A DNA stretch of 64,000 nt from a virus (IMGVR_UViG_3300050821_007134:64001-128000), one strand, 5' to 3'; shown: positions 9,889-43,972, numbered from the stretch's first letter. The notes: a model not told the origin generated them from the sequence alone. Numbers and translations: made by a program.

Positions 9889-12663
9889 TTAAGCGGCGCT
9901 CTGTACTTGCGATACGTTAATGGTAATCGGTACGAAGTAGATAGCGGTTGCAAGCTTGATTTCGACTGCAACGTCCATTTCAGGACCATTGACGCTGACT
10001 TTGGGATTTTTGAACCCGAGAGGAGCATCTGTGCTGCCTGCGATTAACTTTAATCGTTTGTATCCATCCATTTTTTGAGCTAAGAAGCTCAAAGCGGTAG
10101 CGGCGTCGACATCGGCCAAGCTCTTACCAACAAAGGATGCTTGGAAGCTTGCGGCGAGATCGAGGGCCAAAATATCCGAAGCGTACACGGCTTGGATGCT
10201 GTTATAAACGAAATTGGCGTCAAAGGCATAAGTCGTTTGGTCACTAACCCAACGAACTCCAGCGGTATCTTTGGTCCAAAATAATAGACCAGCATCGAGT
10301 GCATCTTCAACATCACCAGGGCTACCCGAGTCAAATCCTGAAGGATCAAGGTAACTGATAACGTTTGCGAATTTGTTAACGATGGCTTTATAGAAACCGC
10401 CCGTTTGCATACCGGCAGCAACAACTGCTTGGTACCAAGGGAGGAAGCTTGTGATAACGCCTTGCGAGTTAACTTGCGAAGGCCTTTGGAAAGCCAAAGA
10501 ACAACGGTACTGAGCAATCCCTTGAGATTTTTGTTTCGTCTGAGCATAAGTTCCCCAGAAAGAAAGGATTGCGATACGATTCTTTTTAAGCTTCGGTGTG
10601 CTGAATTGGATACAATGAGCCTTAGCAGCTGCATGGATTGCATCAATGGTGTAGGTCGAAGATGAATCGGTTAATCCGTCAGCGATATCAGCGCTTGCAT
10701 CTCTTGAGAAGAGAGGAACGATAATGTTAACATTCAATCCAGCCAATGCGTTGATTGCAGCGATAACTTGAGCAGCAGAAGTTCCACCTTTGGTTCCACC
10801 AGATAAGAAAATTGGAGCTGCATTTGGATTGGGTAATCCAGAAGAAGCTTGAGGTGCGAAATTCAATGCGCGAGAAGTACTCATACCTTGTTCGAAAGAG
10901 AACAGAGCATCTTTAATTCTTCCAGGCTGTTCACCAGCTCCGCTTGAAGCGATACCGGCTGCGGTAACTGCATCTAAAGCAGAAGGAGGTAATTGCTGAG
11001 CAGAAGGAGAAGCTGAAGCTGAATATCCAGATTGAGAATTGATAAAAGCAGCAATGTCGGCAACCGTTCTGTATTGGCTAAGAGCGATACTTAAGTTAGC
11101 ACCTGATCCGCCACTAACAGTAGTCGTCAACATTTGACTTACGGGATTAATTGTTAAAGTTGCGGTCGTACCTTGGTAACCAACGTTTAAGGCAATTTGA
11201 GTTGCAACGTCGATTGTTTCGCTTAAGTTAATGTCGGCGCGGTTGATTTGAACTTCAACAGAAGCCTCTTGAGCGGCAACATTTAAACTGTCAGAAAGAC
11301 CTAAAGCGGCTAAATCTCCAGGAGTAGAGTCGAACAATTCAAAACTTCTTGCATCTCCCCTTCGATAAGCGGTAGCATCTATGGCCATGGTAAGAGCAAT
11401 ACTATTTGGTGCAGCGCCAGGTGATGCAGAGATTCCAGAGGGAAGTAACAAATTGAGTTCAGTTATTAACTGAGCCTGATTTGAGTGGTTAGCTCCGTTG
11501 ATTACTCCAGGAGGGAAATTTGTGATTGAAGTTCCAGGACTCACACCAACGTTACCATTGATAATAGTACCGCTAGATGCGCTACCAGTTACGGCTGAAG
11601 CACCTAAGAGACCAAACGTCCCAGCGTAATTTAATAGAGGAGCTTGCTGTGCGTTGACGACAGTGGGTGCGCTTAATGTGACGGCTCCAGTAAGAGCAAT
11701 TAAACTGCCGTTTACAACGGTTCCTAATGTGTCAGTGATTGATGCTTGAGCGATAACGTTACCTTGGAAAGTACCAGCGAATGAAGAATCAAGAGTTGCA
11801 GAACTTCCGACGAGCCAATAAACGTTTTTGGCTAAAGCGCCACCAGTAAAGTTAATAACAGGAGTACCGCTTGAACCAGTCACTAAAGTACTTGCAGTTT
11901 TGATTACGAATACGTCAGTTGAAGAACCGCTAAAAGTAAGAGGTCCGCCTGCATCTAAGGAAGCGGCGCCCGTGCTATAATAACCAGCGGTTAATGTTTG
12001 ACCATCGAGAACAGCGGGAATTGAAACATATCCGCCATGACCAGATAAACTTGTGTAAGCGGCCTGAGCAGCTGATTGAGCTGAAGCGGCTTCGCTTGGA
12101 CTAACTGGACCAGAAGAGCTGCTACTAAGAGTGATAACATTGGCTGCTCCACCGTTTAATCGAAGTGTAAAAGAAGCGCCGTCTAAAGCTGCACCGAATG
12201 CAGGGATAGTTCCACCGGAAAGGGTAGGAGGAGCTTCGGTAGCGATCGAAGTAACTTGATATCTGTATTGGTTTCCAGGAATGCCGAAATTTTGATCAGA
12301 AAAAAGTCCATAGTTAGTGTCAACAGCGGCAGAAGCCTTTGCACTCGTATTTGTTTTTACGATGTAGATTAAATTTGCAGACCCAGTGATATCAGCATCA
12401 GCTGAAGGAGCAGATAATGCTCTCATAGCATCAACGATTGGACCGCTAAGGTATTGTTGTTGAACTTTATCCAATTGATCTGGAGTAAATGAATTGCTGC
12501 TCAAAGGATTAAGATCACTGAAAACATCTCCACCATCGGCTTCACCGATTATGACTACGTTACCAGAAGATCCGATACCAACAGGTTGGCTTTGAACAAC
12601 GATGTTAGGATACGCTCCAGGGATATTGGTATTAATGAAACTTGTTGCTAGTCTTTGAGACAT
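9889..12663 (-). CDS. contractile tail sheath protein with inserted DUF3494 ice-binding-like domain
   Basis: N-terminal PGAY...VIIGEADGG, LSGGTKG and sheath-type C-terminus; internal DUF3494 motifs (LDGQTLTAGYY, NVYWLVGSSATL, FQGNVIA). Confidence 0.85.
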   Translation of the reverse strand: MSQRLATSFINTNIPGAYPNIVVQSQPVGIGSSGNVVIIGEADGGDVFSDLNPLSSNSFTPDQLDKVQQQYLSGPIVDAMRALSAPSADADITGSANLIYIVKTNTSAKASAAVDTNYGLFSDQNFGIPGNQYRYQVTSIATEAPPTLSGGTIPAFGAALDGASFTLRLNGGAANVITLSSSSSGPVSPSEAASAQSAAQAAYTSLSGHGGYVSIPAVLDGQTLTAGYYSTGAASLDAGGPLTFSGSSTDVFVIKTASTLVTGSSGTPVINFTGGALAKNVYWLVGSSATLDSSFAGTFQGNVIAQASITDTLGTVVNGSLIALTGAVTLSAPTVVNAQQAPLLNYAGTFGLLGASAVTGSASSGTIINGNVGVSPGTSITNFPPGVINGANHSNQAQLITELNLLLPSGISASPGAAPNSIALTMAIDATAYRRGDARSFELFDSTPGDLAALGLSDSLNVAAQEASVEVQINRADINLSETIDVATQIALNVGYQGTTATLTINPVSQMLTTTVSGGSGANLSIALSQYRTVADIAAFINSQSGYSASASPSAQQLPPSALDAVTAAGIASSGAGEQPGRIKDALFSFEQGMSTSRALNFAPQASSGLPNPNAAPIFLSGGTKGGTSAAQVIAAINALAGLNVNIIVPLFSRDASADIADGLTDSSSTYTIDAIHAAAKAHCIQFSTPKLKKNRIAILSFWGTYAQTKQKSQGIAQYRCSLAFQRPSQVNSQGVITSFLPWYQAVVAAGMQTGGFYKAIVNKFANVISYLDPSGFDSGSPGDVEDALDAGLLFWTKDTAGVRWVSDQTTYAFDANFVYNSIQAVYASDILALDLAASFQASFVGKSLADVDAATALSFLAQKMDGYKRLKLIAGSTDAPLGFKNPKVSVNGPEMDVAVEIKLATAIYFVPITINVSQVQSAA

Positions 12664-12981: not shown

Positions 12982-13845
12982 TTAACTCTTTTTTAAAATA
13001 TCAGATTTCTTGATTTCTAAAAATTTAGCCAGTTTGGCCACACCTGTATTTTTCCCCGCGATAGCTTCGGATTTATCCATCCAATTCTTCTCGGCCTGTG
13101 ATCTAGGTAACGTAGTACCTTCGCCTTTTGCTTCAGAATTACCTGGAGCTTGTTTTGAAACTCCCATATCATCTGACTTCTGTACGTTCGAAGGAGGAGG
13201 AGTCGCAGACGGTTGTCCAATACTTTGAGCACCCTGAGCAATTTTAGCTGGTGTGATTGCTCCGCTAGCGGCAGCATTTGCAAAGTTGGCGCCGAAGTCT
13301 TTCTTCAACTCGGCCTTTTCCATTGGTTCATGTCTATATGTGTCAGAAGCATGAACTATTTCGTGGCTGTGTAAATTCTTAATTCCAATATTTCGAGCAT
13401 GTTCGGATACTTGATTTGGTGAAGCTTCGTGGGTGTGATATCCGTGTTCTTTCATGCTGTGGTGAACTTTATCAACTAAATGCTGTCTTACGTGTTCACC
13501 GAATTTATTTTTGCTTGATTTTTCAAGCTCTTCGGACTTTCTTACTTGGCCTTCCATTCCATATTTCTTGGTATTGTAAGGTCGAGCGCCGGGGGCCGCA
13601 TTATTGCCTTCGGCATTTTCTTTTGGATTTGTTCTAGGGTCTTGTTGTTCCCTAACGCGTCTTTTTCCCACGATATCTTCTCTATCGAGTTCTTCTTGGT
13701 GTCTGTGGGGAGCCTGAGTACCTAATTTCTTAGAATTCTCAGATTCATATTTCTTCAAAGCTGGGAAATTCTTAATAAGTTCAGTGACCTTAGCTGCTAC
13801 TGCTTCGGCTGCCTGTTTTGCTGTATAACGCTTTTCTTGTGCCAT
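12982..13845 (-). CDS. putative internal head protein
   Basis: charged/low complexity, many hydrophobic-x-K-[S/A] motifs, late motif upstream. Confidence 0.5.
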   Translation of the reverse strand: MAQEKRYTAKQAAEAVAAKVTELIKNFPALKKYESENSKKLGTQAPHRHQEELDREDIVGKRRVREQQDPRTNPKENAEGNNAAPGARPYNTKKYGMEGQVRKSEELEKSSKNKFGEHVRQHLVDKVHHSMKEHGYHTHEASPNQVSEHARNIGIKNLHSHEIVHASDTYRHEPMEKAELKKDFGANFANAAASGAITPAKIAQGAQSIGQPSATPPPSNVQKSDDMGVSKQAPGNSEAKGEGTTLPRSQAEKNWMDKSEAIAGKNTGVAKLAKFLEIKKSDILKKS

Positions 13846-13879: not shown

Positions 13880-14242
13880 TTATGACTTACACTTGGCCAT
13901 AAAATCTCTTAGTTTTCGAGCACTTGCATGTTTTACGTCTTTAAAGTCCTCGGATTTAAACATTCCTGGAGACTTTGGGGTTTTCGATATAGTACTTTGC
14001 TCGCCCGATTTCATTGGATTAGCCACGGCTGTCGGAGTTGGCTTAGGTGAAAGAATTTGTGCTTCAGATTTAAAAATCTCTTGCATGAATTCTTCAGCTT
14101 TTTCAAGACCTTGTGACTTTTTCATCCTATGGAATATGAAGTTAGCCAGAGCCCATTTAGGTTCTCCGCCACTTTTACCGGCAGCTTCTTTAGCTTCCGA
14201 CCATTTCTTTTCATCTTTCGGGGTCTTTACAAATCCTGGCAT
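13880..14242 (-). CDS. putative internal head protein (N-terminus weakly ChaB-like)
   Basis: DEKKWSEAK...WAL helical hairpin; MKKS, LEKA, IFKS, MFKS motifs. Confidence 0.45.
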   Translation of the reverse strand: MPGFVKTPKDEKKWSEAKEAAGKSGGEPKWALANFIFHRMKKSQGLEKAEEFMQEIFKSEAQILSPKPTPTAVANPMKSGEQSTISKTPKSPGMFKSEDFKDVKHASARKLRDFMAKCKS

Positions 14243-15298: not shown

Positions 15299-16054
15299 TT
15301 AATATTTTGCCAAAATTTGCGGCAATACGTTTGTTTCCCATTCTTTTAAAGCCCATTCATAGGCTTTTTCAAAAAAATGTTGTGCGTCGTATCCGGGGTG
15401 AATCCACTTACCTTCACTGGCCGGGCCACTACTTACAGTTCGAAAAGTCATAATGTCTCTTTGAACTTTTCCAGTAATACGATTTTTCTTTTGATATATC
15501 GTAACTCTAGCCAAAGCATCCGTTGTTGCCCTGCTTGTAGGCGGAGCGCTTGGGATACTGAATGAATGAAGTTTTCCAAGTCTTGGATTGCCACCAGATC
15601 CCGTTTCTATTTTCTTATAAGGGATTTTTCTGGCCTTCAATTCAGTTCTAATTTGGCTGACCAAACTTTGAGCGTATGAATTCATGGTAGATGGTGCCCT
15701 ACTATGCTCAAAAGGGATGGCCCTACTTTTATTACCTGTTCTAGGATTTACAGGAGCATCTTTTAAAAGAGATTCCTTCATATCCTTTCCGGGAGTAATA
15801 CCTTCTTCAATCCAAAGTGCGCTTTCATCAATGGTCAAAAGATGAACATGTGGCGCGATTTCTTGAGTCTTAAATCCTTTTTGGAATTGACTCAGCGTGG
15901 TATGAAGTTTATCTGCGGCCATTTCATCAATTTTTGCAGTAGTCATGGCGGCCAGACCATCGACGGCTTCTAAGATGTCCTTTTCAATTTCTTCTTTTGC
16001 TTCTTTAAATGCGCCAGCAATTGCCGAAGCATCAATATGTATTTTAAAGCTCAT
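15299..16054 (-). CDS. putative neck/tail-completion protein (HK97 gp10-like)
   Basis: WIEEG...IPF...FRTVS...WIHPG...FFEKA pattern. Confidence 0.55.
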   Translation of the reverse strand: MSFKIHIDASAIAGAFKEAKEEIEKDILEAVDGLAAMTTAKIDEMAADKLHTTLSQFQKGFKTQEIAPHVHLLTIDESALWIEEGITPGKDMKESLLKDAPVNPRTGNKSRAIPFEHSRAPSTMNSYAQSLVSQIRTELKARKIPYKKIETGSGGNPRLGKLHSFSIPSAPPTSRATTDALARVTIYQKKNRITGKVQRDIMTFRTVSSGPASEGKWIHPGYDAQHFFEKAYEWALKEWETNVLPQILAKY

Positions 16055-18228
16055 TAGTTATTCTCTTGAGCCGCTGCCTTAACAGGAACTCCGCTAGGAC
16101 CCATCACTACACCCTTTTTGCGATCAATCCATCGGGTCTTCCCGGTCTTTTGATCTATCGTCTTTTGTTGACCTTTCAGGTTTATAGAACCTGGAGTCAA
16201 AGGAGTTCTTGGAGTGTGCTTGGTCGTTGCTTTAGTGGGTAATTTTCCCAGGCCACTACCGCCTGGCTTACTTTCTTTTGGGGGCTCGTTAGCTGCACCC
16301 TCCTTAGGAGCAGCCGACTTATCTTTGTCTTCTTTTTTAGGAGGAAATCCACCTTTTTCTTTTCCAGGAGGACCTTCTTTGCCTTCTTTTTTCTCAGGAG
16401 CTTTACCGTCCTTCTTTGGAGGAAAGCCACCTTTTTCTTTTCCGGGTTCTTGTCCAGCTTCTTTGGCTGGATGACTACCACAAGTAGGACAAGGATGTTC
16501 TTCTTGGCCTGGAATTGGTTCTCCGGGCTGGCCTTGAGCACCTTGTTGTTCATTTGGAAGTTGTTCAGTACCATTTGAAATACCAAGCAATTTGGACATT
16601 TCAATCATGGCGCGAAGCATTGCGATACATGAAGAATAAAGCTCAGGGGATTGAGCCTGAGATTGTTCCAAAATTTGTTTGTTATTTTTAAACCCTTGAA
16701 GAGCTTGGCCGATCATCTGTTTTATTTGCTCTTTTTGAGCATCTTCGGCGCCGCCTTCTAAACCATCCTGCATTACTGATTGCATTGGAGGCTCTTCTTC
16801 CTGACCAGGAGGAAGTTCTTCTTGCTCTTGTCCAGGAATTTGTTGGTCGGAAGCCTGATCGGTAGGAGAAGCTTGACCCATCATATCATCTTGGGTATCT
16901 CCAGCATTCGGTCCTTCAAGATTTACGCCACCTTCAGGTCCGCCAGGCATACCAGTGTCTCCGGGAACATTCTGTTCCTTGAAACCATCTGGACGACTAA
17001 CATTCCCTTCCATCTCACTACCGACGGGCATAGCGCCACTATCAATATTGTTCATCTGTTCTTGCTGAACTTGTGGATCGGCAGGGGGAGTATCAACGTT
17101 CTCTTGAATTACTTCTTCAGCTTCTTCTTGAGGCTTGCCACAAGTCGGGCAATTTTGCGCGTGAGCTTCTTGTGGAGGCGCTTGGCCATTTTCAGGAGCT
17201 TCTTTAGGAGCTTCTTTGCCTTTTTCATCTTTCACTTCCTTTTTAGGTTTTTCTTTAGTATCCATATCACCTTCTGCCTTTTTAATAGGAGTTTTGAATT
17301 CATTTTTAGAGGGATCTTTACCGGTATCTTCGGCTTTTTCCCTAGGAGTAGACATTTCTTTTCCACTCGCATGTTTATTGGCTTGACCGTCTTCTTCTTC
17401 CTTTTGTTTTTCTTTTTTCTTATCAGGAAGAGCATTAGGTTGGCCCTGTTCGCCTTTGTTTTTATCTGGAAGTGGCCTGTCTTCAGCTAAGGCAACGTCG
17501 GGTCTAGTATCGCTTTTTGGCTCTTGTTGAGCAACTTTGGCGGATGCTTCTTGATTGACTTTTGCCGTAGCTTGTTCTGGAGATTCCTGAGTTAATGCAC
17601 TATCTTGTGCAACTTGAGAAGACTTTTCTGCCGATGTTCCTGCCGGTGTTTTGGCGGATGCCTTGGCGGATGTTTCGTCACTAGCAGTCTCAGAAGGAGT
17701 CTCACCAGTTTTCTCTTTTTGAATTTGATCTTTCTGCCATGAGTCTTGTTTGAAACCTTTATCATCTTCGGGCTTTAAATATGCTTCACCAAGCTTCTGT
17801 TCTTCTTCAGATCCTTGTCCTTGTGATAATCGATCTTGTGTGGCTTGGATGTCCTTATCAACGGAATCATCGTACATGACCACTTGATTTTTACCACGAA
17901 ATTTAGCAACCATCAGAGATTTTCCAGCTTGTGGAAGATCTTGGCCTACACCAACTGACATAGTCAGATTGGTTGCGAATTCATAATCGCGTCTTAATTC
18001 TTCGATATCTTGAACAGCTTCAGCCGGTAGAGAGAATAAACCTTCGTCTCCGCCCCCGCTGATGACCTGTCCATTATGTTCTTCAACCCATTTCTTAACA
18101 ACTTCATGGCCTAAACCAATGCGACTGGAGACTTCGCTAAGCGCGCCTGGATCGTTAGCCAAAATGGCACGACCTACAAGTCTACCGGCATTATCGCCAT
18201 CGTATGCTAAGAAAATCTGGTTAGTCAC
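16054..18228 (-). CDS. mCpol (minimal CRISPR polymerase/Cas10 palm-like) domain fused to a long disordered region
   Basis: aa 1-120: YDGDNAG...GGGDEG...TMSVGVG...AKFRGKNQ; the remaining ~600 aa are Q/E/P/K-rich with two CPTCG. Confidence 0.75.
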   Translation of the reverse strand: MTNQIFLAYDGDNAGRLVGRAILANDPGALSEVSSRIGLGHEVVKKWVEEHNGQVISGGGDEGLFSLPAEAVQDIEELRRDYEFATNLTMSVGVGQDLPQAGKSLMVAKFRGKNQVVMYDDSVDKDIQATQDRLSQGQGSEEEQKLGEAYLKPEDDKGFKQDSWQKDQIQKEKTGETPSETASDETSAKASAKTPAGTSAEKSSQVAQDSALTQESPEQATAKVNQEASAKVAQQEPKSDTRPDVALAEDRPLPDKNKGEQGQPNALPDKKKEKQKEEEDGQANKHASGKEMSTPREKAEDTGKDPSKNEFKTPIKKAEGDMDTKEKPKKEVKDEKGKEAPKEAPENGQAPPQEAHAQNCPTCGKPQEEAEEVIQENVDTPPADPQVQQEQMNNIDSGAMPVGSEMEGNVSRPDGFKEQNVPGDTGMPGGPEGGVNLEGPNAGDTQDDMMGQASPTDQASDQQIPGQEQEELPPGQEEEPPMQSVMQDGLEGGAEDAQKEQIKQMIGQALQGFKNNKQILEQSQAQSPELYSSCIAMLRAMIEMSKLLGISNGTEQLPNEQQGAQGQPGEPIPGQEEHPCPTCGSHPAKEAGQEPGKEKGGFPPKKDGKAPEKKEGKEGPPGKEKGGFPPKKEDKDKSAAPKEGAANEPPKESKPGGSGLGKLPTKATTKHTPRTPLTPGSINLKGQQKTIDQKTGKTRWIDRKKGVVMGPSGVPVKAAAQENN

Positions 18229-19183
18229 GTTTTTTCCTTAAAGTATCTAGGAGCATTTCAATGTTTTCTGCATCCCAGCCTTTACCAAATCTGACTTTTA
18301 TTCCCTGTTCGGTCTTTTTAATGAAGACCTTCTTTTCTCGATCCTCACCAAGACATATGCACCCGGAAAAAATAGATCCGTCAAAAATGTGCTTACCGCA
18401 ATCCGGGCATTCAACAGTTTCGCCTTTAGCCATCTCAATTGAGAATTCATTCTTTTTACTCTTCCTAAGTTCTATGAACTTTTTTAATTTTTCGTGACCC
18501 TTTTTCATGGGCTCAACAAATTCTGGTTCTTTTCCTGTTACAACAGATTCTACGACCTTCATACCGTTAGTCATTCCTCGAAAGTATTGATCGGACTGGG
18601 GTGTAGATTCCTGTTGAATTTTGGTTATTTCTGAAACTTTGTCTGTAAGTTTCAATAGAACCAATTTATCTACAGCTTCTCTCTCCATGAGTTTCTTATC
18701 GATAACTTTACCGATTAAATCATGAAGTGCTATTCTCTCATCGACTAATTTTTGAACCTTTGCGTCAATGTCAGTGTTACCACTTGACATATTCTCTGAC
18801 AATTGGTTAACGTCATAAAGTTCGAAAGCACTCATTATGACAAGTCCCACTCCTGGTATAGCGCGATTGACAAACTGCACTATTAGTTTAGAACCTTGTC
18901 TGATTTCTCCGCTATAAACGTCTCTTTCATGTTTTTGAGCATTTAGTATAGCGCCGCCTTCCACTGGAAGGTCGAATTCTTTATTTTCACCGATGGCCAT
19001 TGGTGTTAGTTCTTTGATGACTAAAGCCATTACAGTTCTTGGAACAATTTGTAAGGCGGTCCTTAATTCTTCATGATCGACAACGGTACGAGTTCCGGGC
19101 TTATAAAGCTCGAATTTCTGCAAAGACTCCATGTAGTCCTTGCCCAAGGTCTTTTTCAAGAAGAAGTTAGCGCCTGAGGCCAT
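18221..19183 (-). CDS. putative head-associated protein with C-terminal Zn finger
   Basis: CPDC...CIC; several hydrophobic-x-K motifs. Confidence 0.55.
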   Translation of the reverse strand: MASGANFFLKKTLGKDYMESLQKFELYKPGTRTVVDHEELRTALQIVPRTVMALVIKELTPMAIGENKEFDLPVEGGAILNAQKHERDVYSGEIRQGSKLIVQFVNRAIPGVGLVIMSAFELYDVNQLSENMSSGNTDIDAKVQKLVDERIALHDLIGKVIDKKLMEREAVDKLVLLKLTDKVSEITKIQQESTPQSDQYFRGMTNGMKVVESVVTGKEPEFVEPMKKGHEKLKKFIELRKSKKNEFSIEMAKGETVECPDCGKHIFDGSIFSGCICLGEDREKKVFIKKTEQGIKVRFGKGWDAENIEMLLDTLRKKRD

Positions 19184-19192
19184 TTTATTACC

Positions 19193-19633
19193 TTATCTCG
19201 ATGCTTCGAGTGATATGGCCGTATCGTCGTCAATTAAATAAACAAGCAGTGTAGCGCTGTCAGTAATTACTGAAATTTGTTCGCCAGCTGCCACATAGGT
19301 CCAAGCATTTGGAGTACATGCAATTCCTACGTGACCCGAGGCATCTACTGCACCAGCTGCCAATGCAGCGATGGTAAGATCTTCACCAAAAGTGACAGCA
19401 TGAACGGCAGCGCTATTATTGTAGATCGCCAAATTTCTTCCAGCGGAAGGAAGTGCGCGAGCGGTAGAAGCATCAGTTGTATAAGTCGTCGCATTGATAT
19501 TTAGTGGAAGTAATTTCCTTCCAACTTCGGCAACTTTCCTAGCTCCGGCCTTTTCACTGAAAGTCATGTTCTCGACGCTGGGTACGTCTGTGACTCGATA
19601 ACCTAATACTTTTCTTTTCTTTATTCCTGCCAT
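19193..19633 (-). CDS. putative virion structural protein
   Basis: beta-rich, structural operon. Confidence 0.5.
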   Translation of the reverse strand: MAGIKKRKVLGYRVTDVPSVENMTFSEKAGARKVAEVGRKLLPLNINATTYTTDASTARALPSAGRNLAIYNNSAAVHAVTFGEDLTIAALAAGAVDASGHVGIACTPNAWTYVAAGEQISVITDSATLLVYLIDDDTAISLEASR

Positions 19634-19674
19634 AAGTCCTTAACTTTCCTTTGTTTTATACTGATTGAAGATTA

Positions 19675-20601
19675 TTATTCGCCTTCTGTAATTGTGGACA
19701 TATCCACTGGTATCACGGGGTTAGCTGGGTCAATGGATTCAGTGGGCGCTTCCACGACTCTTCCAGGTGTCTTCGATTTGAGCTGATTGACTTGGTCACC
19801 CTTATTTTGATTGTGATAGATGTATTCCCGGACGATCTCAGCGTAGTAGGGCATTCTTTCGGGACTTCTGACGCCATTAGTCGTAACATTGGTGATTCGG
19901 ATTTCTTTGGGGAGGCTGACCACATACCAAAAAGCATTGTAGAGATATCTGATTGAATATATTCGGCCTTTTCCGGTATCTGGATCAATTCCTGGATTTT
20001 TTCCGCCTTTTTCCCAGCGAATGCTGCCTTCACTTGTGAGGCAAAAATCAACACCGAGTTTGTATTCAATATTACGGCTGTCGATTAAAAACTCAATACT
20101 TACAATAGGATACATCGGAATATTGTCCGCATCAGGGGTGTAATCCATTTTATGATATGTGGCTACTTTGGTGTCTGCCTTTGGATCGGCAACATAAAGT
20201 CTATCACCAGGGGCCAAATAAATTCTATCACCATTCGACATGTCGGGGGTTCCCGGAGCATTATAGAACCTAGGCAGGACCAAACGGCCAACGGCCACGT
20301 CTACGAACCCGCCATCACTTTTCTTCTTGTCTCGTTTGTCATCTGTCATGGTGGCCGAGAAAACTCCGCCACATTTGTAAATAAAGCCGTTTGAGGTAAT
20401 TGTGTCGACTCCGTCGCTTCTGCGGTAGTCACCCTTGTCTTTTTGACCAATAGGGCTAGGAATTGCCTTGTAATGGTTGAAATCAACGGCGAAGCTTGTG
20501 ACAAAAGCATCCTGTTTGGCCAGATCTAAAGAATGCTGGACGAAGGGACTTTCGCGTTGAATATCATCGACTTGTATGCCGACGGGTTTACGATCTGACA
20601 T
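19675..20601 (-). CDS. putative neck/head-completion protein
   Basis: position between adaptor and tail genes; resembles SPO1/Twort-type structural proteins (YSIRY motif). Confidence 0.5.
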   Translation of the reverse strand: MSDRKPVGIQVDDIQRESPFVQHSLDLAKQDAFVTSFAVDFNHYKAIPSPIGQKDKGDYRRSDGVDTITSNGFIYKCGGVFSATMTDDKRDKKKSDGGFVDVAVGRLVLPRFYNAPGTPDMSNGDRIYLAPGDRLYVADPKADTKVATYHKMDYTPDADNIPMYPIVSIEFLIDSRNIEYKLGVDFCLTSEGSIRWEKGGKNPGIDPDTGKGRIYSIRYLYNAFWYVVSLPKEIRITNVTTNGVRSPERMPYYAEIVREYIYHNQNKGDQVNQLKSKTPGRVVEAPTESIDPANPVIPVDMSTITEGE

Positions 20602-20959
20602 TATTACATCCTGCTATGCTGCACATTTCGGCTATTTCTTCTAATTTCTTGTCTGTGTTAGAAAATGAATTAACCAGAGATTTTATCACTTCATTAAGTT
20701 CTAAATCTTTGGAGTACATTTTCATTTTATTTTTTACCTTTGCACCCATTATGCTACTGTTATGATTGACCTTTATATTGAATGTTCGGCTGATTCCAGT
20801 TTGGCAAAATCGTTCGATCTCATCCAAAAATTTCTCCAAGGAGGGATCGTTTGGCTCATAGTCTACTACGATCTGTTTTGAGCCCCTTATCTGTTCTTCC
20901 AGTGGCTTATTTATATCGTATTTGATTTCGTCTTCAGCTCGAATAATCTTTATACACAT
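20588..20959 (-). CDS. hypothetical protein (probable start MCIKII at 20959)
   Basis: in-frame ATG abutting the upstream stop; the longer ORF-track start overlaps the upstream gene. Confidence 0.55.
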   Translation of the reverse strand: MCIKIIRAEDEIKYDINKPLEEQIRGSKQIVVDYEPNDPSLEKFLDEIERFCQTGISRTFNIKVNHNSSIMGAKVKNKMKMYSKDLELNEVIKSLVNSFSNTDKKLEEIAEMCSIAGCNNVRS

Positions 20960-20960
20960 C

Positions 20961-21482
20961 TTATTTACCCGTAATTTTAACCTTTGACGCATTGCAAGAC
21001 ATTGCCTTCTCGGCAGTTGCCCCGGCCAGTGCCCGGCGGAATTCTTGCGGTGCAGTAACACCATCAATAACAATTGAATCTCTCTCGAAATGGCTCATTA
21101 CAGAGGCCACCTTAGCGTTATTTTTGGTAATGTGAAATTCCACCATGCTACCATTTTGGATAGAATAAATACCATGACCAGACTTCCTAAGATCCTCGCT
21201 CAACCAATGAGAATGTTCATCGACGATGGAAGAATCAGTCATTCCCTCGCTTTTCATCAAAGCTGGCTGAAAGTCTGGGTATTGTTTTCCAAGGTTGAAC
21301 TTTACAACAGCTGGATGACTCCCTGCGGCTAAAGCTTCTTCCCTGTATTTGCCTTTTGGTTTACCAATGGCAATCCAGAAACCTCCGCGAGTGCGGATCA
21401 TTTTAACTGGATGTTTGTCGAGCATACCAGCATCTTCTATATGTTCAATTTCTTTTTCAGTGAGAATTGGCTTGTCGCTCAT
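20961..21482 (-). CDS. putative internal head protein
   Basis: coupled ORF; LMKSE, LRKSG motifs. Confidence 0.5.
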   Translation of the reverse strand: MSDKPILTEKEIEHIEDAGMLDKHPVKMIRTRGGFWIAIGKPKGKYREEALAAGSHPAVVKFNLGKQYPDFQPALMKSEGMTDSSIVDEHSHWLSEDLRKSGHGIYSIQNGSMVEFHITKNNAKVASVMSHFERDSIVIDGVTAPQEFRRALAGATAEKAMSCNASKVKITGK

Positions 21483-23005
21483 TTCTTAACTCCTTGATTA
21501 TAGGCATTATTTATTTTTATTACATGCCAGTGTTTACTAATGTCTTGTTTGTCGTGTTGGGCCTTATAAGTACCGCGAATTCCTTCTAACCATGCATATC
21601 CTATTTTCTGCGGATCGTTGCCAAAATGTTTTTCAAGTCTTTTCAAATGCTGCTTAGCAATAGTGTCTTCTAGGCCTGGATTGTCTCTCATGAAGTTTTG
21701 CAATTGGGGACCGCGAAGGATAGTGGCTTTTTGATATTTGTGCTTTAGTTCTGGATGAAGGCTTATTGTTTCTCGTATGATATTTGGCGTTAAAGCATAC
21801 TTACCGTATGCTTGTTCGCCAGAATGTAATCTCTTGTGATGTGTGTTCTTGCCGCCGCTACTTTCGACAGAAGCGATAGTTCTAAGCATGTGTTCTGGAC
21901 TGTAAGTGGGAGCCTTGAATGCCGGGGCTTGCATAACCTTTGGAGCCGCGTCTACACTTTGGGGAGCGGCGGGCTGACCAATTAAAGAAGAAGCGGCGAT
22001 CATTGCGCCTGCGGCTTTAGTCTTAAAGCTTTTTTCCATGTCTTCTGTAAATTCATATATGGTATTCCCGGCGCCTTTTTCAACACTAAGGTTATCGAAA
22101 TGGACTTCATCCGGAGATAGACCCTCCTTCTTTATTTGGTCATAAAGAGGCTTGTCGATTGTAACGTGTGTGAAATATTCTTTATATTGCACTCCGTCAA
22201 TAGTGTCATAGAATTTTTTGTATTCTGGAGGGCATCCGTCAATCATGAGCATGAAATAATCGGCATCGCTATAATCAGAATGATGAATTTTGGTATGGAA
22301 TCTTAAAGCATGAGGATCTGGTTTTGTAATTCCAAGTCGTTTGACTTTGGCTTTGATATCTTCGATATCCATCTTTTGTTTTTCGTCAAAAACCTTAAGA
22401 GACATATGAAGAGGAATATCATCCGTTAAGAATTTACGACCTTTGATGGTTACTTTGAAAAGTACATCTCCGCCAGATTTTGCTTTCTTTCGATATTCAT
22501 TGCAAACACCAGTTCCGATTTTTTCTCTTTTAGCAATATCGGGCTCGATAAGTTGATTGTTAATAGTCTGTTCGGGAGATCTCTGTACTCCACTTTGACC
22601 TTCGCCTTCAGCACCAGGATTTGATCGCATATCGCGATCTCCAGTTTCAACCTTTAGTACTTTGATGCCATAGGCAGCGAGTTCTTTAGCCCATTTGTCC
22701 TGCTCTTCTTTATGGCAAACTACGTAGGCAGAATCAATAAATTCCCTACTTTTTTGAATGATGACATGATCTGGGTATTTCATTGCAAAAAGTTCAACGG
22801 CTCCAGGAGGACTGGACGATTGATCTAAAATGATTTTACAATCAGATGGAATTTCCATGACAGGATTGTAAGTATCATTGTTTATGACAGTATCTCCGGC
22901 GCTACCACTAGGAGCAGACCCCGACTCAACGATATCGCTAAGTTCTTGAATAGAATCTTCCAATGTGCGTCTCATATGTTTATGCAGCATGATGCCACTT
23001 CCCAT
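21479..23005 (-). CDS. multidomain virion protein: 2H phosphoesterase (Acb1-like) plus C-terminal lytic transglycosylase/lysozyme-like domain
   Basis: LHMSL and THVTI motifs 80 aa apart; IASVESSGG...AYGKYAL...AW..G. Confidence 0.65.
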   Translation of the reverse strand: MGSGIMLHKHMRRTLEDSIQELSDIVESGSAPSGSAGDTVINNDTYNPVMEIPSDCKIILDQSSSPPGAVELFAMKYPDHVIIQKSREFIDSAYVVCHKEEQDKWAKELAAYGIKVLKVETGDRDMRSNPGAEGEGQSGVQRSPEQTINNQLIEPDIAKREKIGTGVCNEYRKKAKSGGDVLFKVTIKGRKFLTDDIPLHMSLKVFDEKQKMDIEDIKAKVKRLGITKPDPHALRFHTKIHHSDYSDADYFMLMIDGCPPEYKKFYDTIDGVQYKEYFTHVTIDKPLYDQIKKEGLSPDEVHFDNLSVEKGAGNTIYEFTEDMEKSFKTKAAGAMIAASSLIGQPAAPQSVDAAPKVMQAPAFKAPTYSPEHMLRTIASVESSGGKNTHHKRLHSGEQAYGKYALTPNIIRETISLHPELKHKYQKATILRGPQLQNFMRDNPGLEDTIAKQHLKRLEKHFGNDPQKIGYAWLEGIRGTYKAQHDKQDISKHWHVIKINNAYNQGVKK

Positions 23006-24200
23006 GTACTATGTTTTCGGGCAGTAGACCAGCTTTTTGATCTGCGTAAACTGTCTTTTGAGGATTTTTTCTATTTTCTTCGCCATGTTTGCCAAAATTG
23101 ACGGTATTATTTTGTCCCATCGTTTCTGTGGCGAGTGCCTTTTGTGCTTCAGGAGAATACATTTGTTTGTGAGTTAAGAATGCAGAATGTTCACCCTTAG
23201 GACCAAAAGTATGTCCTTCTTTGGCATGACCAAAATAATCGTGTACTATTCTGAATACGTCATTGGCAAGTAGTGGGCTGCCTTCATGGAGAATCTTTGT
23301 AGGTGTCAATAGAGGATGATCCTTCGGAGCACTTCCTTCAGAACCAAATCCACCTTCTGTTGGGAAAAACCAGAGATGATTGTTATTATGGATATCGTGC
23401 ATTACGTCTTTTGAATTTTTATAAGGGTTGGCCATTCCCGGTTTGATCTTTGAAATCTTCAATCCACTATTCTTAATATGGTTGAACTGATCCATAGTTT
23501 CATTGATCAGGGCGCCATATGCTTTCTGAACAGCTGGGTCTCCGGGACTGTGCTTCATTCCTTCATATGAACTAGCTATTTGTTTACCGTGTTCTGGATT
23601 AACATTGACAGCTGGTGTAGGAGATAGTTTTATCCCTTTACTTTTGGCATAACTCTCCGCAACTTGTTTTACTTTATTGTCAGGTTTCAGACCAATACTA
23701 GGAGTAGGTTGAGCAGCAGATTGAATTGGTTTTTCTTCGGCCTTTTTCATATCTTCATTGAAGTTATGAGTAAATCGTCCGGCGCCACCAGGAAGAGTTG
23801 TATAAAAATCTTTTGGCTGTTGAGCATGCCAGGTAGTTCCTTGTCCCATTACTTTCTGCCCAGCTTTTTCTCCATGATGATAACGCATTTCATGTTTCTT
23901 TCCAGTAGAATAAATGGAACTCTCTTGACCCAGATTAGCGGCTAATGAATGAAGTTGTTCGGCTTGTTGGGGAGAAATTTTGTAAATGATTATTGATTTT
24001 TCTGGTTTTCCATAATGACCCATAACTTCATGGGCGTCGTACTGAGCACCCTTAAGATGTTTCAAAACAGCTGCATGATCTAGATTTAACTTGTTTTGTT
24101 CTGGGTATATTGGATTGTCAGCGGACATAAGGAAATGCGGTCCGGAAATGCTTTTCCGGTGATCTTTCATCGCATTTAATATGCCTCTATCAACGCCCAT
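22980..24200 (-). CDS. two-domain virion protein: SAM-lyase/DUF3293-like N-domain plus HDxxGH domain
   Basis: MSADNP...GHYGKPEKSII...LGQESSIY; NDVFRIVHDYFGH...GE...ETMGQN; MKKAE linker. Confidence 0.55.
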   Translation of the reverse strand: MGVDRGILNAMKDHRKSISGPHFLMSADNPIYPEQNKLNLDHAAVLKHLKGAQYDAHEVMGHYGKPEKSIIIYKISPQQAEQLHSLAANLGQESSIYSTGKKHEMRYHHGEKAGQKVMGQGTTWHAQQPKDFYTTLPGGAGRFTHNFNEDMKKAEEKPIQSAAQPTPSIGLKPDNKVKQVAESYAKSKGIKLSPTPAVNVNPEHGKQIASSYEGMKHSPGDPAVQKAYGALINETMDQFNHIKNSGLKISKIKPGMANPYKNSKDVMHDIHNNNHLWFFPTEGGFGSEGSAPKDHPLLTPTKILHEGSPLLANDVFRIVHDYFGHAKEGHTFGPKGEHSAFLTHKQMYSPEAQKALATETMGQNNTVNFGKHGEENRKNPQKTVYADQKAGLLPENIVHGKWHHAA

Positions 24201-26256: not shown

Positions 26257-26290
26257 AAATAAAAAGGCCCTAGGGCGAAACCCTAGGGCC
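26255..26290 (-). terminator. intrinsic terminator
   Basis: GGCCCTAGGG-loop-CCCTAGGGCC followed by T-tract on the minus strand, between convergent genes. Confidence 0.8.
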
Positions 26291-26338: not shown

Positions 26339-27307
26339 TTAGGGGCCAGTGTTGCCGCTGATTAATGTAACTGCGGTCTGAGCATAGAGAGATCCGTGAA
26401 CCGTACATGTCGCTTGAACTGCGATTGATGTTTGATCCAAGATAACGCCTCTGAATATTGAACTTGTTTTCAGAGTGGTTGCGCCTGCAACTGCCCATGT
26501 AACGTTTTGTGGCAAGATTCCACCAGTCAAATGAATTTGAACACCAGTTTCTAAATTGAGAGTACCGGCAATTTGAAGGATGATTGAATCTGCGGGTCCG
26601 CCATTGATAGTGATATCACCAGTGACATCGACTGCTGTGGACCATTTGTAAATCCCAGGAGTTAAAGTTTGACCGTTAAGAGTACCTGCGCCTAAGTTAA
26701 CAACCGGAGCTGGGCTTGTTTGTGCTTGAGCAAAAGTGTAAGCAGCTTGCATTGCACTAACAGCTGCCGTTAAGTTTGCAGGAGTTGGAGCTGCGTTATC
26801 GGAAGCATCCACGTTTCCAGAAACTTCAACAGCACTTCCATGTGGGCCAGCGAGATTTGGAGTGTATGTGAAACCAGTGATTGCAGTATGTGAAATTGGA
26901 CTTACTGCAATGTTACCTGTAACTGTTGCGCCGGATGCATTGCTGATTCCAGATTCAGCTAACATTCTGTAATTTGAAGCAGAACCTAAGTTTACCAAAG
27001 CTGGGCCACGATGAACAGGAATTGCGCAATGAGCATTGATGCTTGCAACGACGGCTTCCATAACATCATCACTTGCGAACCCATCTTCCATTACTGCTTG
27101 GTCATGCAGAGAAAGAGATCTTTGACATAACATAGCAGCTTGAATATTTTGGGCTACGGTTTTGCTGCCCATGGCGTCTGTCAATCTAATGAAAGTTTTT
27201 GGTGAGAGAATTGCGCCAGCATCGATTGCTGCACAAAATTCTTTACCGGCTTTTACGTCTGCCAGTGCGACAATGACGTTGGGAATAAATTTACTCGGGA
27301 ATGCCAT
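26339..27307 (-). CDS. DUF3494 ice-binding-like protein with ~100-aa N-terminal domain (possible capsid decoration)
   Basis: VNLGSASNYRMLA...GNIAVSP...AMQAAY...GQTLTPGIYKW...NVTWAVAG...FRGVIL...LYAQTAVTL. Confidence 0.85.
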   Translation of the reverse strand: MAFPSKFIPNVIVALADVKAGKEFCAAIDAGAILSPKTFIRLTDAMGSKTVAQNIQAAMLCQRSLSLHDQAVMEDGFASDDVMEAVVASINAHCAIPVHRGPALVNLGSASNYRMLAESGISNASGATVTGNIAVSPISHTAITGFTYTPNLAGPHGSAVEVSGNVDASDNAAPTPANLTAAVSAMQAAYTFAQAQTSPAPVVNLGAGTLNGQTLTPGIYKWSTAVDVTGDITINGGPADSIILQIAGTLNLETGVQIHLTGGILPQNVTWAVAGATTLKTSSIFRGVILDQTSIAVQATCTVHGSLYAQTAVTLISGNTGP

Positions 27308-27914: not shown

Positions 27915-29315
27915 TTATGATCCACCAGGGGTCAATTGACCAGTGATGTTCTCAAGAAGAACGTTTTTGCGAGGTTGGAAAACAGCGAGAGACAAGAATC
28001 TGAAATGTGCTTCGGGGAGCGACAAGTCATTGATTGCAAGTTTCAATTTGCTGTAAGGAGCCAATTGAGCGATGCTCATTGTGTTTCCTTGAACGAGGAA
28101 CCCTGTAACAGATCCTTCAGATCGGTTACCGAGGTCGGTAAATACTGGGTTACCAATCCCTTGAGAGATCTTACCGATGAACTTAGCAGAAGCGGCAGAT
28201 CCACCAGCACTTGAACGATAAACGTTGTAGTACTGAGCGCCAGCAACAGCGGTAATGGTAACGGTAACTTTATCACCGGCCAAAGCAACTGCTTGCGAAG
28301 CGGAAGGGGAGGGGAGCGACTCACCACGGATACTTACGGCGGTTACATAATAAACGTATGTAGCAGCTTGGAGTAATGATCCGGCAGCACCGGCATCAGC
28401 AAGAGCAGGAGCAGCGGGTTGATTTGGGCTGCCTGCGCGAGCGCGTGCGGGGCGGGTTTTACCAGAGAGGAAACGAGAAGCTTCTAGCGAAACAATGGCA
28501 CTTGATGTCCATTGAGTTCGTAAATGAGCGCCTGAGGCCTCTTGAGGAGAACCGGCGAGCATAATACGTTCTTTCGCATGAGCGATTTTGTTATATTGAC
28601 TGAGGGTGATAGGATCGAGAACGAGTCTGTCAGCAGCACCCATGTTCATTGCTGAACGAACCGAGCTATCTTCGATGATGGACTGTGCTAATGCACCGCC
28701 AACAGAGAGGATAACAGTTTGGTCTGAACCGTACTCAGCAAACATCAAGTCTTGAGTGTTTGATTGAGCATCGGATTGACGAACTTGTTGATCGAGACCG
28801 ATCATGTTTGGAACTTTTGCGACTGCAAGAGGGTTACCATCGAACACCCCAGCATTGGAGAAATCTGATTGTCCTCGGAAGAGGTCAAATTCGATATCGC
28901 CAGCAAGCTTCATAGCTGCGTCAGCTGAAGCTCTATCTTCGGCTTTAACACCGTCGAAAGCACCAATCATATTGGCAGCAACAGTGACTCGACGAGTCGT
29001 GCTGTAATATGACATGGGGACTACTGCACGAACATAATTCGTGGTGTCTTCTTCGCCGATTCCGCCTTCAAATTGAGCAGAACCTCCGAAAATACCATAG
29101 TCAAGTTGACGGTTAAACTGGTGAAGCTGAGACTTAACGTCTTTGCTTGGCAGCATTTTTTGCAACTTGATATGACTGTCATCGAATGTAACATTATGCA
29201 TTACGGGGGAAAGATCTTCCACCATAAGTGCAGCACCTTGAGCCAATTGGCCGGGAGCCGCGTTATAGCTACCTGCTTCTAGGGCTTTCATAAGTGACTG
29301 AAGTTGTTCGATCAT
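27915..29315 (-). CDS. major capsid protein (SPO1/Twort-like)
   Basis: KAL.AG...GAAL.VEDL start, IEFDLF.G, Ig-like insertion with Y.VTAV...GES and YNVYRS, LAVFQPRKN C-terminus. Confidence 0.85.
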   Translation of the reverse strand: MIEQLQSLMKALEAGSYNAAPGQLAQGAALMVEDLSPVMHNVTFDDSHIKLQKMLPSKDVKSQLHQFNRQLDYGIFGGSAQFEGGIGEEDTTNYVRAVVPMSYYSTTRRVTVAANMIGAFDGVKAEDRASADAAMKLAGDIEFDLFRGQSDFSNAGVFDGNPLAVAKVPNMIGLDQQVRQSDAQSNTQDLMFAEYGSDQTVILSVGGALAQSIIEDSSVRSAMNMGAADRLVLDPITLSQYNKIAHAKERIMLAGSPQEASGAHLRTQWTSSAIVSLEASRFLSGKTRPARARAGSPNQPAAPALADAGAAGSLLQAATYVYYVTAVSIRGESLPSPSASQAVALAGDKVTVTITAVAGAQYYNVYRSSAGGSAASAKFIGKISQGIGNPVFTDLGNRSEGSVTGFLVQGNTMSIAQLAPYSKLKLAINDLSLPEAHFRFLSLAVFQPRKNVLLENITGQLTPGGS

Positions 29316-29345: not shown

Positions 29346-30260
29346 TTATTTAAGCAGATGGCTAATAGTTTTAATGTCGGCACCATTTAAATAAAATTCG
29401 TTGATCGCATCTCGGTCAGCTTTGGCCAAGGTAGGATCAGCGGACTTTTTCAATAAAATCGGGGTAATTTCACTCTTTGTGAGTGGCTGTACTTCTGCTC
29501 CAGCGCCTTCGCCTTTGGCAATTACATCAATTGATGTAATAGCTTTTTGGGGAGGAGGAGTAGTTTTCTCAACAAACTTCGTTAAGAAAGCGGTTACTGC
29601 GTTAAGTTGATTCTTCGAATCTTCATTTTCTTTTTTGAGAGACTCGATTTCAGATTTCAAAAGATCGGCTTCTGACTTATTCATTTCGCTTCCTTTGTTA
29701 AGTACAGGTTGAGGTGTTTCTGAATCAGCGGACTTAGCGCCCGGCGATCCCTTCGGGGGACATTTCTCAATTTCTGCCTTATTCAAGACAGGTTGAGGTG
29801 TTTCTGAATCTGAGGATTTAGCCCCAGGAGAACCCTTCGGAGGGTTTGCTTCGATTTTCCCAGTTTCGGTCTTATTAAGAACCGGTTGGGGCGTTTCAGA
29901 AGCTTCAGATTTGGCTCCAGGTGAACCTTTGGGAGGGCAAGCGTTCATTTCTCCGCCATTGCCGTCTGCTTTTGCGAGATCGCCATCGGTCATTGCCTTT
30001 GCGATTGACTCATGATGAGCTTTTAACTCACCCTTCGACATAGACTTATACATTTTATGCATAGCCTTTTTGTCTTCTTCGTCGTAATCACAATCCTCAT
30101 TCTTTTCAATAGCGGTCGTTTCCGACTTAACTACTTCAGCGGAGGGCTCTGATTTTGCAAGCGGGGCAGCGGCCTCGCCTTCAGCTTTCTTAAGCTCTAC
30201 TGAGAATTCTTTTTCGATTTCCGAAACAAGACTCAATAGTTGCTGTTCTGTGTAATGCAT
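29346..30260 (-). CDS. capsid scaffolding protein
   Basis: immediately upstream of MCP; acidic/coiled-coil; many LxKS/A motifs; internal repeats. Confidence 0.7.
   Translation of the reverse strand: MHYTEQQLLSLVSEIEKEFSVELKKAEGEAAAPLAKSEPSAEVVKSETTAIEKNEDCDYDEEDKKAMHKMYKSMSKGELKAHHESIAKAMTDGDLAKADGNGGEMNACPPKGSPGAKSEASETPQPVLNKTETGKIEANPPKGSPGAKSSDSETPQPVLNKAEIEKCPPKGSPGAKSADSETPQPVLNKGSEMNKSEADLLKSEIESLKKENEDSKNQLNAVTAFLTKFVEKTTPPPQKAITSIDVIAKGEGAGAEVQPLTKSEITPILLKKSADPTLAKADRDAINEFYLNGADIKTISHLLK
29695..29945 (-). repeat. three copies of PPKGSPGAKSxxSETPQPVLNK
   Basis: near-identical coding repeats. Confidence 0.85.
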
Positions 30261-43284: not shown

Positions 43285-43456
43285 GTGATCTTTTTCCAGG
43301 CTACCGTTATCAAATAAGAGATGCCTAACAAACAAAGATGTATGTGCAGTCCTTTTTGATAGCCGCTATGTCTTACGGAATGCTTCATTATGTGAATCAT
43401 TAAAATCGAATGGTCACCATGCATTTCGCAGGCTTCGATTTCAACTCCTAAGATGT

Positions 43457-43972
43457 TCACTCAGTTTCGCTTTTTGGCATCGTATCAACGACAGGCGTTT
43501 CTTTTTCCTTCAAGAAAATATTTACAAGCGATTGAGTGGCTGGAGCCGCTTCTTTAATTGCTTTGTGTCTATCGTTGTACAGCTTTAAAAGTTCGTCAGC
43601 ACTTGGCTGAGGAATGACTTCTTTTGAAAATGCACGTCTTTGAGTATGATTTGATACTTGCGCATTTCTGGCTATGATCTCATCTGGAGTCAGTTCCGTG
43701 GGTTTCTTTTTAAGGGGTTTTTCTCCCTGACTAAAACCAATGCTAGTTAAATCTAGTCCATTTTGAAGAGCATATTTTTTAAGCATGACAAGTGCTAAAT
43801 GAAGTTGTCTTATCTCTTCATTGGCCTTATCAAGTGCCGCCAAGGCATCATACAACTGAGCCTCGGTGTCCACGGGAGATTGCTCGACTAGATCGGATTC
43901 AGAAACTCCACTTAGACCTACACCTAGATCCAATTGATTCACATTCAATTCTTCTTCATGTTCGTCTGACAT
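43457..43972 (-). CDS. hypothetical coiled-coil protein
   Basis: abuts GroEL stop; upstream of terminase. Confidence 0.55.
   Translation of the reverse strand: MSDEHEEELNVNQLDLGVGLSGVSESDLVEQSPVDTEAQLYDALAALDKANEEIRQLHLALVMLKKYALQNGLDLTSIGFSQGEKPLKKKPTELTPDEIIARNAQVSNHTQRRAFSKEVIPQPSADELLKLYNDRHKAIKEAAPATQSLVNIFLKEKETPVVDTMPKSETE

Follow-up and report, generated by a model that had tools for sequence, protein, structure and literature searches.

Polyvalent proteins, in which several enzyme domains, 2H phosphoesterase and lysozyme domains among them, form one packaged and injected polypeptide, were predicted for phages in 2017, and that work already proposes that a capsid-packaged 2H enzyme acts against nucleotide-activated defence (PMC5512222). 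Protease-processed ejection proteins are known from SPN3US and T4 (PMC10052503), and the description of Panoptes, a defence system built on a minimal Cas10-palm cyclase (mCpol), predicts phage anti-anti-anti-defence and names the phage counter as yet to be found (PMC12657218). Here we analyse three genes in IMGVR_UViG_3300050821_007134:64001-128000, hereafter the window, that is, the whole stretch of 64,000 nucleotides (bases 64001-128000 in the complete record, 171,073 bases long, of a large uncultured phage). A first-pass annotation had read these genes as a virion-delivered counter-defence kit, and all three open reading frames (ORFs) are indeed present on the minus strand: one of 724 amino acids (aa; 16054-18228) with an mCpol domain, one of 508 aa (21479-23005; the true start is probably Met6) with a 2H and a lytic transglycosylase (LT) domain, and one of 406 aa (22980-24200) with an S-adenosylmethionine (SAM) lyase fold and an HDxxGH domain. 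The reading that we favour, as a moderately probable one, is that such precursors are packed into the head, cut to single enzymes and ejected to disarm the host; everything in it beyond sequence and fold we infer.

The evidence that carries this reading is a short motif, phi-x-K↓[S/A/G] (phi, hydrophobic; arrow, proposed cut), which was scored as [LMFI]-x-K-[S/A/G], with Val also allowed for SPO1. As had been noticed before, it delimits domains in the 508-aa and 406-aa proteins (MEKS at aa 323-326 and MKKA at aa 151-154, respectively), and both sites fall in low-confidence linkers of the structural models, with a predicted local distance difference test score (pLDDT) of <50 at aa 325-354 and aa 151-167. 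Counted over about 240 homologous proteins, which are related and thus do not represent independent events, the motif reached a density of 2.03 per 100 aa at short junctions versus 0.17 inside domains, and 112 of 133 domain junctions carried it versus 26% in composition-matched shuffles. An independent set gave 64 of 104 HDxxGH domains with an upstream motif, against 20 expected. The same motif saturates the head scaffold, another earlier observation that held up, with 14 copies where 1.6 are expected (0 of 2000 shuffles reached 14); it occurs 11 times in the SPO1 scaffold and ends the capsid leader here (LMK↓ALEAG), in SPO1 (LNK↓ALEAG) and in Mx1 (LRK↓AMEAG). Prohead proteases typically cut scaffolds and capsid leaders. 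Because the motif is shared with both, its sequence pattern very probably marks a prohead-protease site.

The modules between these sites are readily exchanged. Five modules occur in eleven architectures among the homologous proteins, and in Myxococcus phage Mx1, the only close cultured relative (capsid protein 52% identical; SPO1-like herelleviruses come next with 27%), the same gene slots hold GNAT, ART-PolyVal, NUDIX, LT, kinase and SAM lyase between the same motifs. That is, unrelated conflict-enzyme domains are shuffled within one polypeptide among virion genes, the pattern by which polyvalent proteins are recognised. One complete relative lacks mCpol, 2H, LT, SAM lyase and HDxxGH and still keeps the carrier and neck genes; the enzymes are therefore a dispensable payload. 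Mx1 and the window phage also have their capsid-to-sheath gene order in common, and the three ORFs sit between the major capsid gene (27915-29315) and the tail sheath gene (9889-12663). Their earlier assignment to a head/neck operon is right as to location, but the block does not form one operon with the capsid genes, because a terminator (26266-26290) separates it and the protease gene lies on the opposite strand. The product of this gene, our proposed cutting enzyme, is 38% identical over 206 aa to the putative prohead protease of Mx1 and aligns with the SPO1 protease, its His and Ser motifs being kept; its match to phrog_1028 is weak.

Since sequence searches of the genome against Pfam, PHROG, NCBIfam, PADLOC and PDB gave no 2H, LT or SAM lyase match, these domains were identified by fold. 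The 508-aa protein is modelled as a small N-terminal domain followed by a 2H and a lysozyme-fold domain. The first of these, absent from the first-pass annotation, occurs in the closest relatives only (6 homologues), is joined to the 2H domain with no intervening motif, and returned only generic ACT/YebC-like matches in a structure search. The 2H fold matches rotavirus VP3 phosphodiesterase (Z 8.8), YjcG (8.6) and Acb1 (6.8), and both catalytic-motif histidines, His200 in HMS and His280 in HVT, are invariant in 111 homologues, some of which carry the JGI name 2'-5' RNA ligase. The previous label, Acb1-like phosphodiesterase, turns out to be too specific: fold and histidines are there, but no profile of Acb1 (PF23474) or any other 2H family matched at E values up to 1. 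Viral 2H enzymes vary widely in substrate (10.1101/2025.08.21.671373).

For the second enzyme of this protein, the lytic transglycosylase fold was confirmed by matches to MltC (Z 11.6), Slt70 (Z 9.9) and phiKZ gp144 (Z 9.4), and the catalytic Glu381, at the end of the first helix, is invariant in homologues. The motif is found in 83 of 86 short 2H-LT junctions and upstream of the domain in 118 of 126 LT homologues. Directly behind the site and before LT lies a leader stretch of ~20 residues, present in Mx1 as well; it is hydrophobic in 97% of the homologues with the motif, versus 0-10% behind the motif in other modules. Cutting would thus expose a conserved helix as the new N terminus of LT, a feature that had escaped earlier notice. 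We suggest that this leader might take LT to or across the membrane and hence to the peptidoglycan, apart from the cytoplasmic enzymes.

The SAM-lyase fold of the 406-aa protein was likewise borne out, with T3 SAM lyase as a match (Foldseek E 9e-4; Z 9.9; rmsd, root-mean-square deviation, 3.9 Å; 123 aligned residues) compared to Z 5.9 for Svi3-3 and ≤5.3 for unrelated structures. The G-x-Y, Glu, Gln-Glu pattern needed in the Svi3-3 and T3 enzymes (PMC7877911) is kept in 42-45 of 45 homologues, position 93 being Asp or Glu; its residues were matched to Svi3-3 Gly56, Tyr58, Glu69, Gln104 and Glu105 by motif, not by superposition (PMC7877911). At the profile level, the 406-aa protein has no match to the SAM-lyase profile PF23780, its homologues score 20-26 bits against a cut-off of 28, and DUF3293 stays sub-threshold (22 against 25); an hhalign comparison of the SAM-lyase alignment with the single T3 sequence gave no match. 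A second, stand-alone SAM-lyase-like gene (E 7e-8) is found outside the window, at genome position 43435-43920 on the plus strand, in a region of small genes distant from the virion module.

The junction between SAM lyase and HDxxGH carries the motif in 9 of 18 cases (first homologue set). The HDxxGH domain itself, present at aa 172-404 as annotated, has His320, Asp321, His325, Glu337 and His344 as invariant residues. Its family numbers 4713 clusters when grouped at 50% identity; the domain is often part of a giant protein that also contains LPD38, ART-PolyVal, GNAT, NUDIX or kinase domains, and some relatives are fused to MuF-type head-morphogenesis domains. It probably acts as a metal-dependent enzyme and belongs to a large, undescribed family in phages. 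Neither Foldseek nor VIA-align found a PDB match, a weak test given that the whole-protein model was used. Assignment as a peptidase was considered and not accepted; the Atlas gives hypothetical-protein clusters, with an M48 peptidase at TM 0.33.

The mCpol assignment holds at the sequence level, with both catalytic aspartates present and a Pfam PF18182 score of 51.5 bits against a cut-off of 26.4; the domain also matches Panoptes OptS (PDB 9mnr) at E 3e-7, and NCBIfam NF033576 falls just below its cut-off (37.9 against 40). In the alignment, Asp10 and Asp61 correspond to OptS Asp6 and Asp57, the positions at which an Asp-to-Asn change abolishes activity (PMC12657218), and they are conserved in 96 and 89 of 98 homologues, respectively. 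Ser34 corresponds to OptS Ser30, which favours 2',3'-c-di-AMP (PMC12657218), and the GGDE loop is kept, whereas the position of OptS Asn34 is taken by Gly38; Ser34 hints at adenine use, with Gly38 as a difference from OptS. A homodimer was modelled with a score of 0.82, versus 0.00 for the best control (pLDDT 94; 100% of contacts agreed between runs). Of 30 solved homodimers, 20 attained this mark, as did 1 of 23 monomers, although the dimer score may reflect model memory of OptS. The neighbours of the gene are conserved virion-module genes, among which no S-2TMbeta or CARF-TM domain was found, so that the two-gene operon of Panoptes is not seen here.

Behind mCpol, the carrier continues as a long acidic tether, a helical domain (aa 497-552; 16573-16740; conserved in 97 of 98 homologues) and a conserved C-terminal domain (aa 660-718; 16075-16251). 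The tether has one candidate site, IKK↓A at aa 317 (17275-17286). The earlier description of all three proteins as protease-punctuated polyproteins thus holds for the 508-aa and 406-aa proteins but mostly not for this one, whose only site lies ~200 residues past the mCpol domain, and we regard the mCpol of the 724-aa carrier as mostly not cargo in the motif-punctuated sense. In relatives, GNAT, YunG and DUF5661 modules are inserted in the tether, and the carrier gene survives in a clade without mCpol. In that clade (L063, L064, L072), many CxxC repeats open the carrier in place of mCpol, and two CPTCG motifs are seen in the window carrier. Four cargo polyproteins with HDxxGH, two of which also have SAM lyase, contain mCpol domains of a second group, with intact motifs; in three of the four, mCpol directly follows a site. 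A further nucleotide-cyclase gene of Mx1 (L003:9174-9905), located beside its protease gene, matches the mCpol profile built here. In 39 of 53 related loci, the C-terminal domain of the carrier is encoded in the -1 frame, downstream of a slippery heptamer; in the window the domain is in frame, with the heptamer still in phase, and a slip would yield a truncated product that stops near aa 652. The default and the shifted product would then be swapped relative to most relatives.

The first-pass annotation had paired the enzymes: 2H would destroy signals of the cyclic-oligonucleotide-based antiphage signalling system (CBASS) while mCpol refills a decoy that keeps the Panoptes effector off. Acb1 is able to trigger Panoptes (PMC12657218; bioRxiv 10.1101/2025.08.21.671373), and the Ser34 equivalence with OptS speaks for a fitting product (PMC12657218). 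Co-occurrence, which the annotation had proposed as a check, was scored with the neck gene as an unbiased anchor in 49 distinct clade members, using a 2H profile built from relatives, which very divergent 2H domains could escape. Here, mCpol is present in 46 of 49 members: 38 deeply divergent members keep both Asp and the GD[E/Q] loop, seven that form one clade carry Asp10Asn, and the copy in Mx1 is degenerate; a 3-member clade lost the domain. Among members whose cargo slot is at least partly covered, all 19 with a 2H there have both catalytic Asp, and all 10 with a lost or damaged mCpol are without 2H, but 10 others have an intact mCpol and no 2H in the slot. Searches of whole genomes, with the window genome as positive control, found no 2H in one complete genome with an intact mCpol (G004), in the Asn-clade genomes, in the loss-clade genome or in Mx1. 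G004 was also free of Acb1, Acb2/Tad1, Tad2 and PF13876 matches, and the last three gave none in five genomes including the window genome.

What these counts can tell depends on the tree, which holds only three loss events. The loss clade branches from within the 2H carriers and gave up 2H along with mCpol, as the pairing would have it, but LT, SAM lyase and HDxxGH went too; from this event, the only informative one, it follows that the phage can do without the entire payload, whereas mutual dependence of two enzymes does not follow. The pattern agrees with '2H needs mCpol' on that single event, so one direction of the expected association came out (2H always with intact mCpol) and the other did not: mCpol clearly does not need 2H, and on the tree it appears ancestral and older than the 2H cassette. 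Mx1, with no detectable 2H and a degenerate mCpol, cannot test the pairing. As to the host, two contigs of the phage's clade were binned in the metagenome-assembled genome Deltaproteobacteria bacterium bog_1112, which is a hint only; in 130 other genomes of this tentative host phylum, which are incomplete, no Panoptes mCpol was found (one match was Cas10), although SMODS was present in 9. The replacement of OptS Asn34 by Gly and the futility of making and destroying the same molecule, unless the enzyme specificities differ, weigh on the same side, as do the eight mCpol domains predicted to be dead. The pairing against Panoptes is thus unlikely in the form originally given. Recast as a protease-coded modular payload, in which injected mCpol supplies the decoy that keeps a Panoptes-type guard off while a 2H delivered with it degrades CBASS or type III signals, it is still unlikely.

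A second alternative accepts cleavage but not injection: the proteins would act late inside the cell, countering defences that respond to capsid proteins or to the prohead protease itself, or on the outside of the head/neck. Their position among neck and head-completion genes and the -1 frameshifting fit structural or late proteins, the LT leader resembles an export signal with a possible role in lysis, and type I CBASS responds to prohead proteases (cited in PMC13728456), which would make late counter-defence useful. However, the simplest reason for a prohead-protease site is that the protein is inside the prohead; N-terminal leaders hold sites more often than expected (103 of 240 proteins, against 42), as in T4 internal proteins; the MuF-type fusions of HDxxGH relatives likewise point to the head; and SAM depletion is most useful at DNA entry. 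We therefore find late or external action distinctly unlikely.

Less probable again is that mCpol and 2H retune host cyclic-dinucleotide signalling (c-di-GMP or cGAMP) for phage growth rather than jam immunity. Deltaproteobacterial GGDEF variants make cGAMP, the sole cultured relative infects Myxococcus and has the additional gene annotated as nucleotide cyclase beside its protease, and nearly every clade member has mCpol, while the genomes searched in the tentative host phylum showed no Panoptes. Against this, the cargo neighbours SAM lyase, ART, GNAT and NUDIX are typical conflict enzymes, known mCpol relatives act in immunity only, and the host link is tentative. That the mCpol fold serves mainly for dimerisation or, like a sponge, for nucleotide binding within a neck-assembly protein, with catalysis incidental, is highly improbable: the fold persists with Asp10Asn and in degenerate form in Mx1, the gene position is fixed, the modelled dimer is strong and mostly no site follows mCpol, but 38 of 46 domains keep their catalytic residues, one clade builds particles without the domain, and the second mCpol group, its motifs intact, serves as a free cassette.

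None of these explanations fully excludes the delivery scheme, which we set out as follows. The genes would be late virion-cargo genes of an Mx1-like myophage, made of exchangeable enzyme cassettes, whose precursors are built into the prohead. There, the prohead protease may cut after lysine to release [small domain + 2H], [helix + LT], [SAM lyase], [HDxxGH] and [mCpol + tether], pieces that would be small enough to exit through the tail and free to oligomerise. The exposed helix would bring LT to the cell envelope, where LT could open the peptidoglycan; in the cytoplasm, 2H might cleave cyclic or 2'-5' nucleotide alarms, and SAM lyase might destroy SAM or SAM-AMP. The mCpol domain could make an adenylate cyclic nucleotide that occupies host receptors without firing them, as an antagonist or off-signal; we picture it as an ancestral cassette acting independently of 2H, for which cover from Panoptes is at most one use. 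Domain identities, intact catalytic residues, cassette shuffling and the motif at junctions, scaffold and capsid leader are computational results. Several points weigh against the scheme. The Asp10Asn clade and the degenerate mCpol of Mx1 suggest that some lineages keep the fold without catalysis, and the change equivalent to Asp10Asn kills KpOptS (PMC12657218). A site between mCpol and the helical domain is found in 28 of 97 carriers, with a density of 0.14 per 100 aa that is no higher than background, and the 2H fold cannot give the substrate. Cutting after the motif lysine, the habit of the herelleviral protease in A511 and phage K, is predicted here from the sequence pattern. Finally, mapped cleavages in SPN3US remove terminal propeptides and do not separate enzymes (PMC10052503).

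The features discussed are collected in Table 1. Further small genes are rich in the motif (12982-13845, 13880-14242, 18221-19183, 20961-21482 and 37894-38610), homologues of the 20961-21482 gene having a mean of 1.6 sites per 100 aa. The pre-sheath gene represents a third cargo slot, which holds SAM lyase in Mx1 and exceeds 1000 aa in some relatives. The sheath (9889-12663) measures 924 aa, ~200 aa longer than the ~718 aa of most relatives, and its insert, judged by eye, resembles a 322-aa gene (26339-27307). The 320-aa gene before mCpol is reduced to a 97-aa Zn-ribbon end in the closest relative (L001:9715-10008) and in L006. The protease gene (30998-32512) is inverted relative to the other head genes and co-oriented with them in Mx1; in both phages, the protease tail (aa ~337-413 here) has a copy of the capsid-protein N-terminal arm just behind a motif, which is possibly a capsid-docking signal. 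A scan for sigma-70 promoters stayed at chance level.

Table 1. Positions of the cargo domains, candidate cleavage sites and associated virion genes in the window
Feature	Position	Strand	Remarks
Carrier protein, 724 aa	16054-18228	minus	mCpol, acidic tether, helical domain, C-terminal domain
Slippery heptamer C-CCA-AAA	16276-16282	minus	in phase for a -1 slip
mCpol (minimal Cas10-palm cyclase) domain, aa 6-119	17872-18213	minus	Pfam PF18182, OptS alignment
LT / lysozyme-fold domain, aa 368-508	21482-21904	minus	Glu381
Basic-then-hydrophobic, signal-peptide-like helix, then Pro/Ala/Gln linker	21968-22030	minus	would be the new LT N terminus after cutting
Candidate prohead-protease site MEK↓S, 2H to LT leader	22028-22039	minus	aa 323-326
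2H phosphoesterase domain, aa 178-321	22043-22474	minus	His200, His280; fold matches
Small alpha/beta domain, aa 53-124	22634-22849	minus	pLDDT 78-96
HDxxGH domain, aa 172-404	22989-23687	minus	phrog_3170
Candidate prohead-protease site MKK↓A, SAM lyase to HDxxGH	23739-23750	minus	aa 151-154
SAM-lyase-fold domain, aa 15-147	23760-24158	minus	Gly61-x-Tyr63, Glu67, Gln92, Glu93
Major capsid protein	27915-29315	minus	phrog_752; leader ends LMK↓ALEAG
Head scaffold	29346-30260	minus	14 motif copies
Prohead protease (N-terminal ~190 aa) and motif-rich tail; proposed cutting enzyme	30998-32512	plus	

If the scheme is true, a short sequence tag shows which enzymes a family of 155-175 kb phages loads in the head and where they are cut, and every cassette flanked by tags can be regarded as a candidate anti-defence protein, HDxxGH with its thousands of unstudied members among them. 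An active phage mCpol would mean a phage making immune-type nucleotides with an enzyme so far known only from host defence. Cultured Mx1 allows direct testing of the cleavage and packaging claims. The CBASS/type III-B locus of M. xanthus does not stop Mx1 (PMC11506125), and the payload would offer a lead to this resistance. In a literature search that left most subscription papers outside, we found no description of a phage mCpol or of this phage family's cargo. Packaged 2H as anti-defence was proposed in 2017 (PMC5512222). Not found described are cassette release at a SPO1-type prohead-protease site, the unmasked LT leader, a late SAM-lyase cassette and a phage mCpol.

Among known systems, phage polyvalent proteins come closest, being multi-enzyme proteins encoded among virion genes, with 2H, lysozyme, ART-PolyVal, GNAT, NUDIX and kinase domains as in the proteins described here (PMC5512222); HDxxGH, too, occurs with LPD38 and ART-PolyVal. 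For polyvalent proteins, release by built-in metallopeptidase domains is proposed (PMC5512222), whereas here a prohead-protease-type site stands at the junctions. The term mCpol is absent from that paper, and SAM-lyase cassettes and a signal-like LT leader do not feature in the passages considered (PMC5512222). Panoptes OptS (PF18182; PDB 9mnr, 9pd0, 9nwn) is matched in family, in the equivalents of Asp6/Asp57 and Ser30, and possibly in the dimer, whose model may reflect OptS itself (PMC12657218, PMC12657230, PMC13577387). Unlike OptS, the phage mCpol is encoded by a lytic-type phage with no adjacent S-2TMbeta/CARF-TM effector, is fused to a 600-aa carrier and has Gly for Asn34. OptS enzymes make 2',3'-c-di-AMP, 3',2'-cGAMP or cA3 constitutively in Panoptes, while the phage mCpol is known from sequence. 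The 2H domain has the fold and the two invariant His motifs of Acb1 and other viral 2H enzymes (7t27, 9q2y, rotavirus VP3, poxvirus cGAMP phosphodiesterase), but it differs from Acb1 in giving no profile match, in a Z score (6.8) below those to VP3 (8.8) and YjcG (8.6), and in being part of a polyprotein. Fold and the G-x-Y, Glu, Gln-Glu pattern link the SAM lyase to T3 gp0.3, Svi3-3 and the SAM-AMP lyase AcrIIIB4 (PMC7877911, PMC12255297); the T3 enzyme is the product of an early stand-alone gene and the one here a late cassette, whose preference for SAM or SAM-AMP is not readable from sequence. Finally, T4 internal proteins and Alt, the SPN3US/phiKZ ejection proteins and P1 DarA/DdrB are proteolysed head proteins delivered to the host, a fate predicted here from the genes. 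The proteases of these systems cut after Glu and mainly trim propeptides, whereas in the window phage a Lys-based, SPO1-type site would separate folded enzymes.

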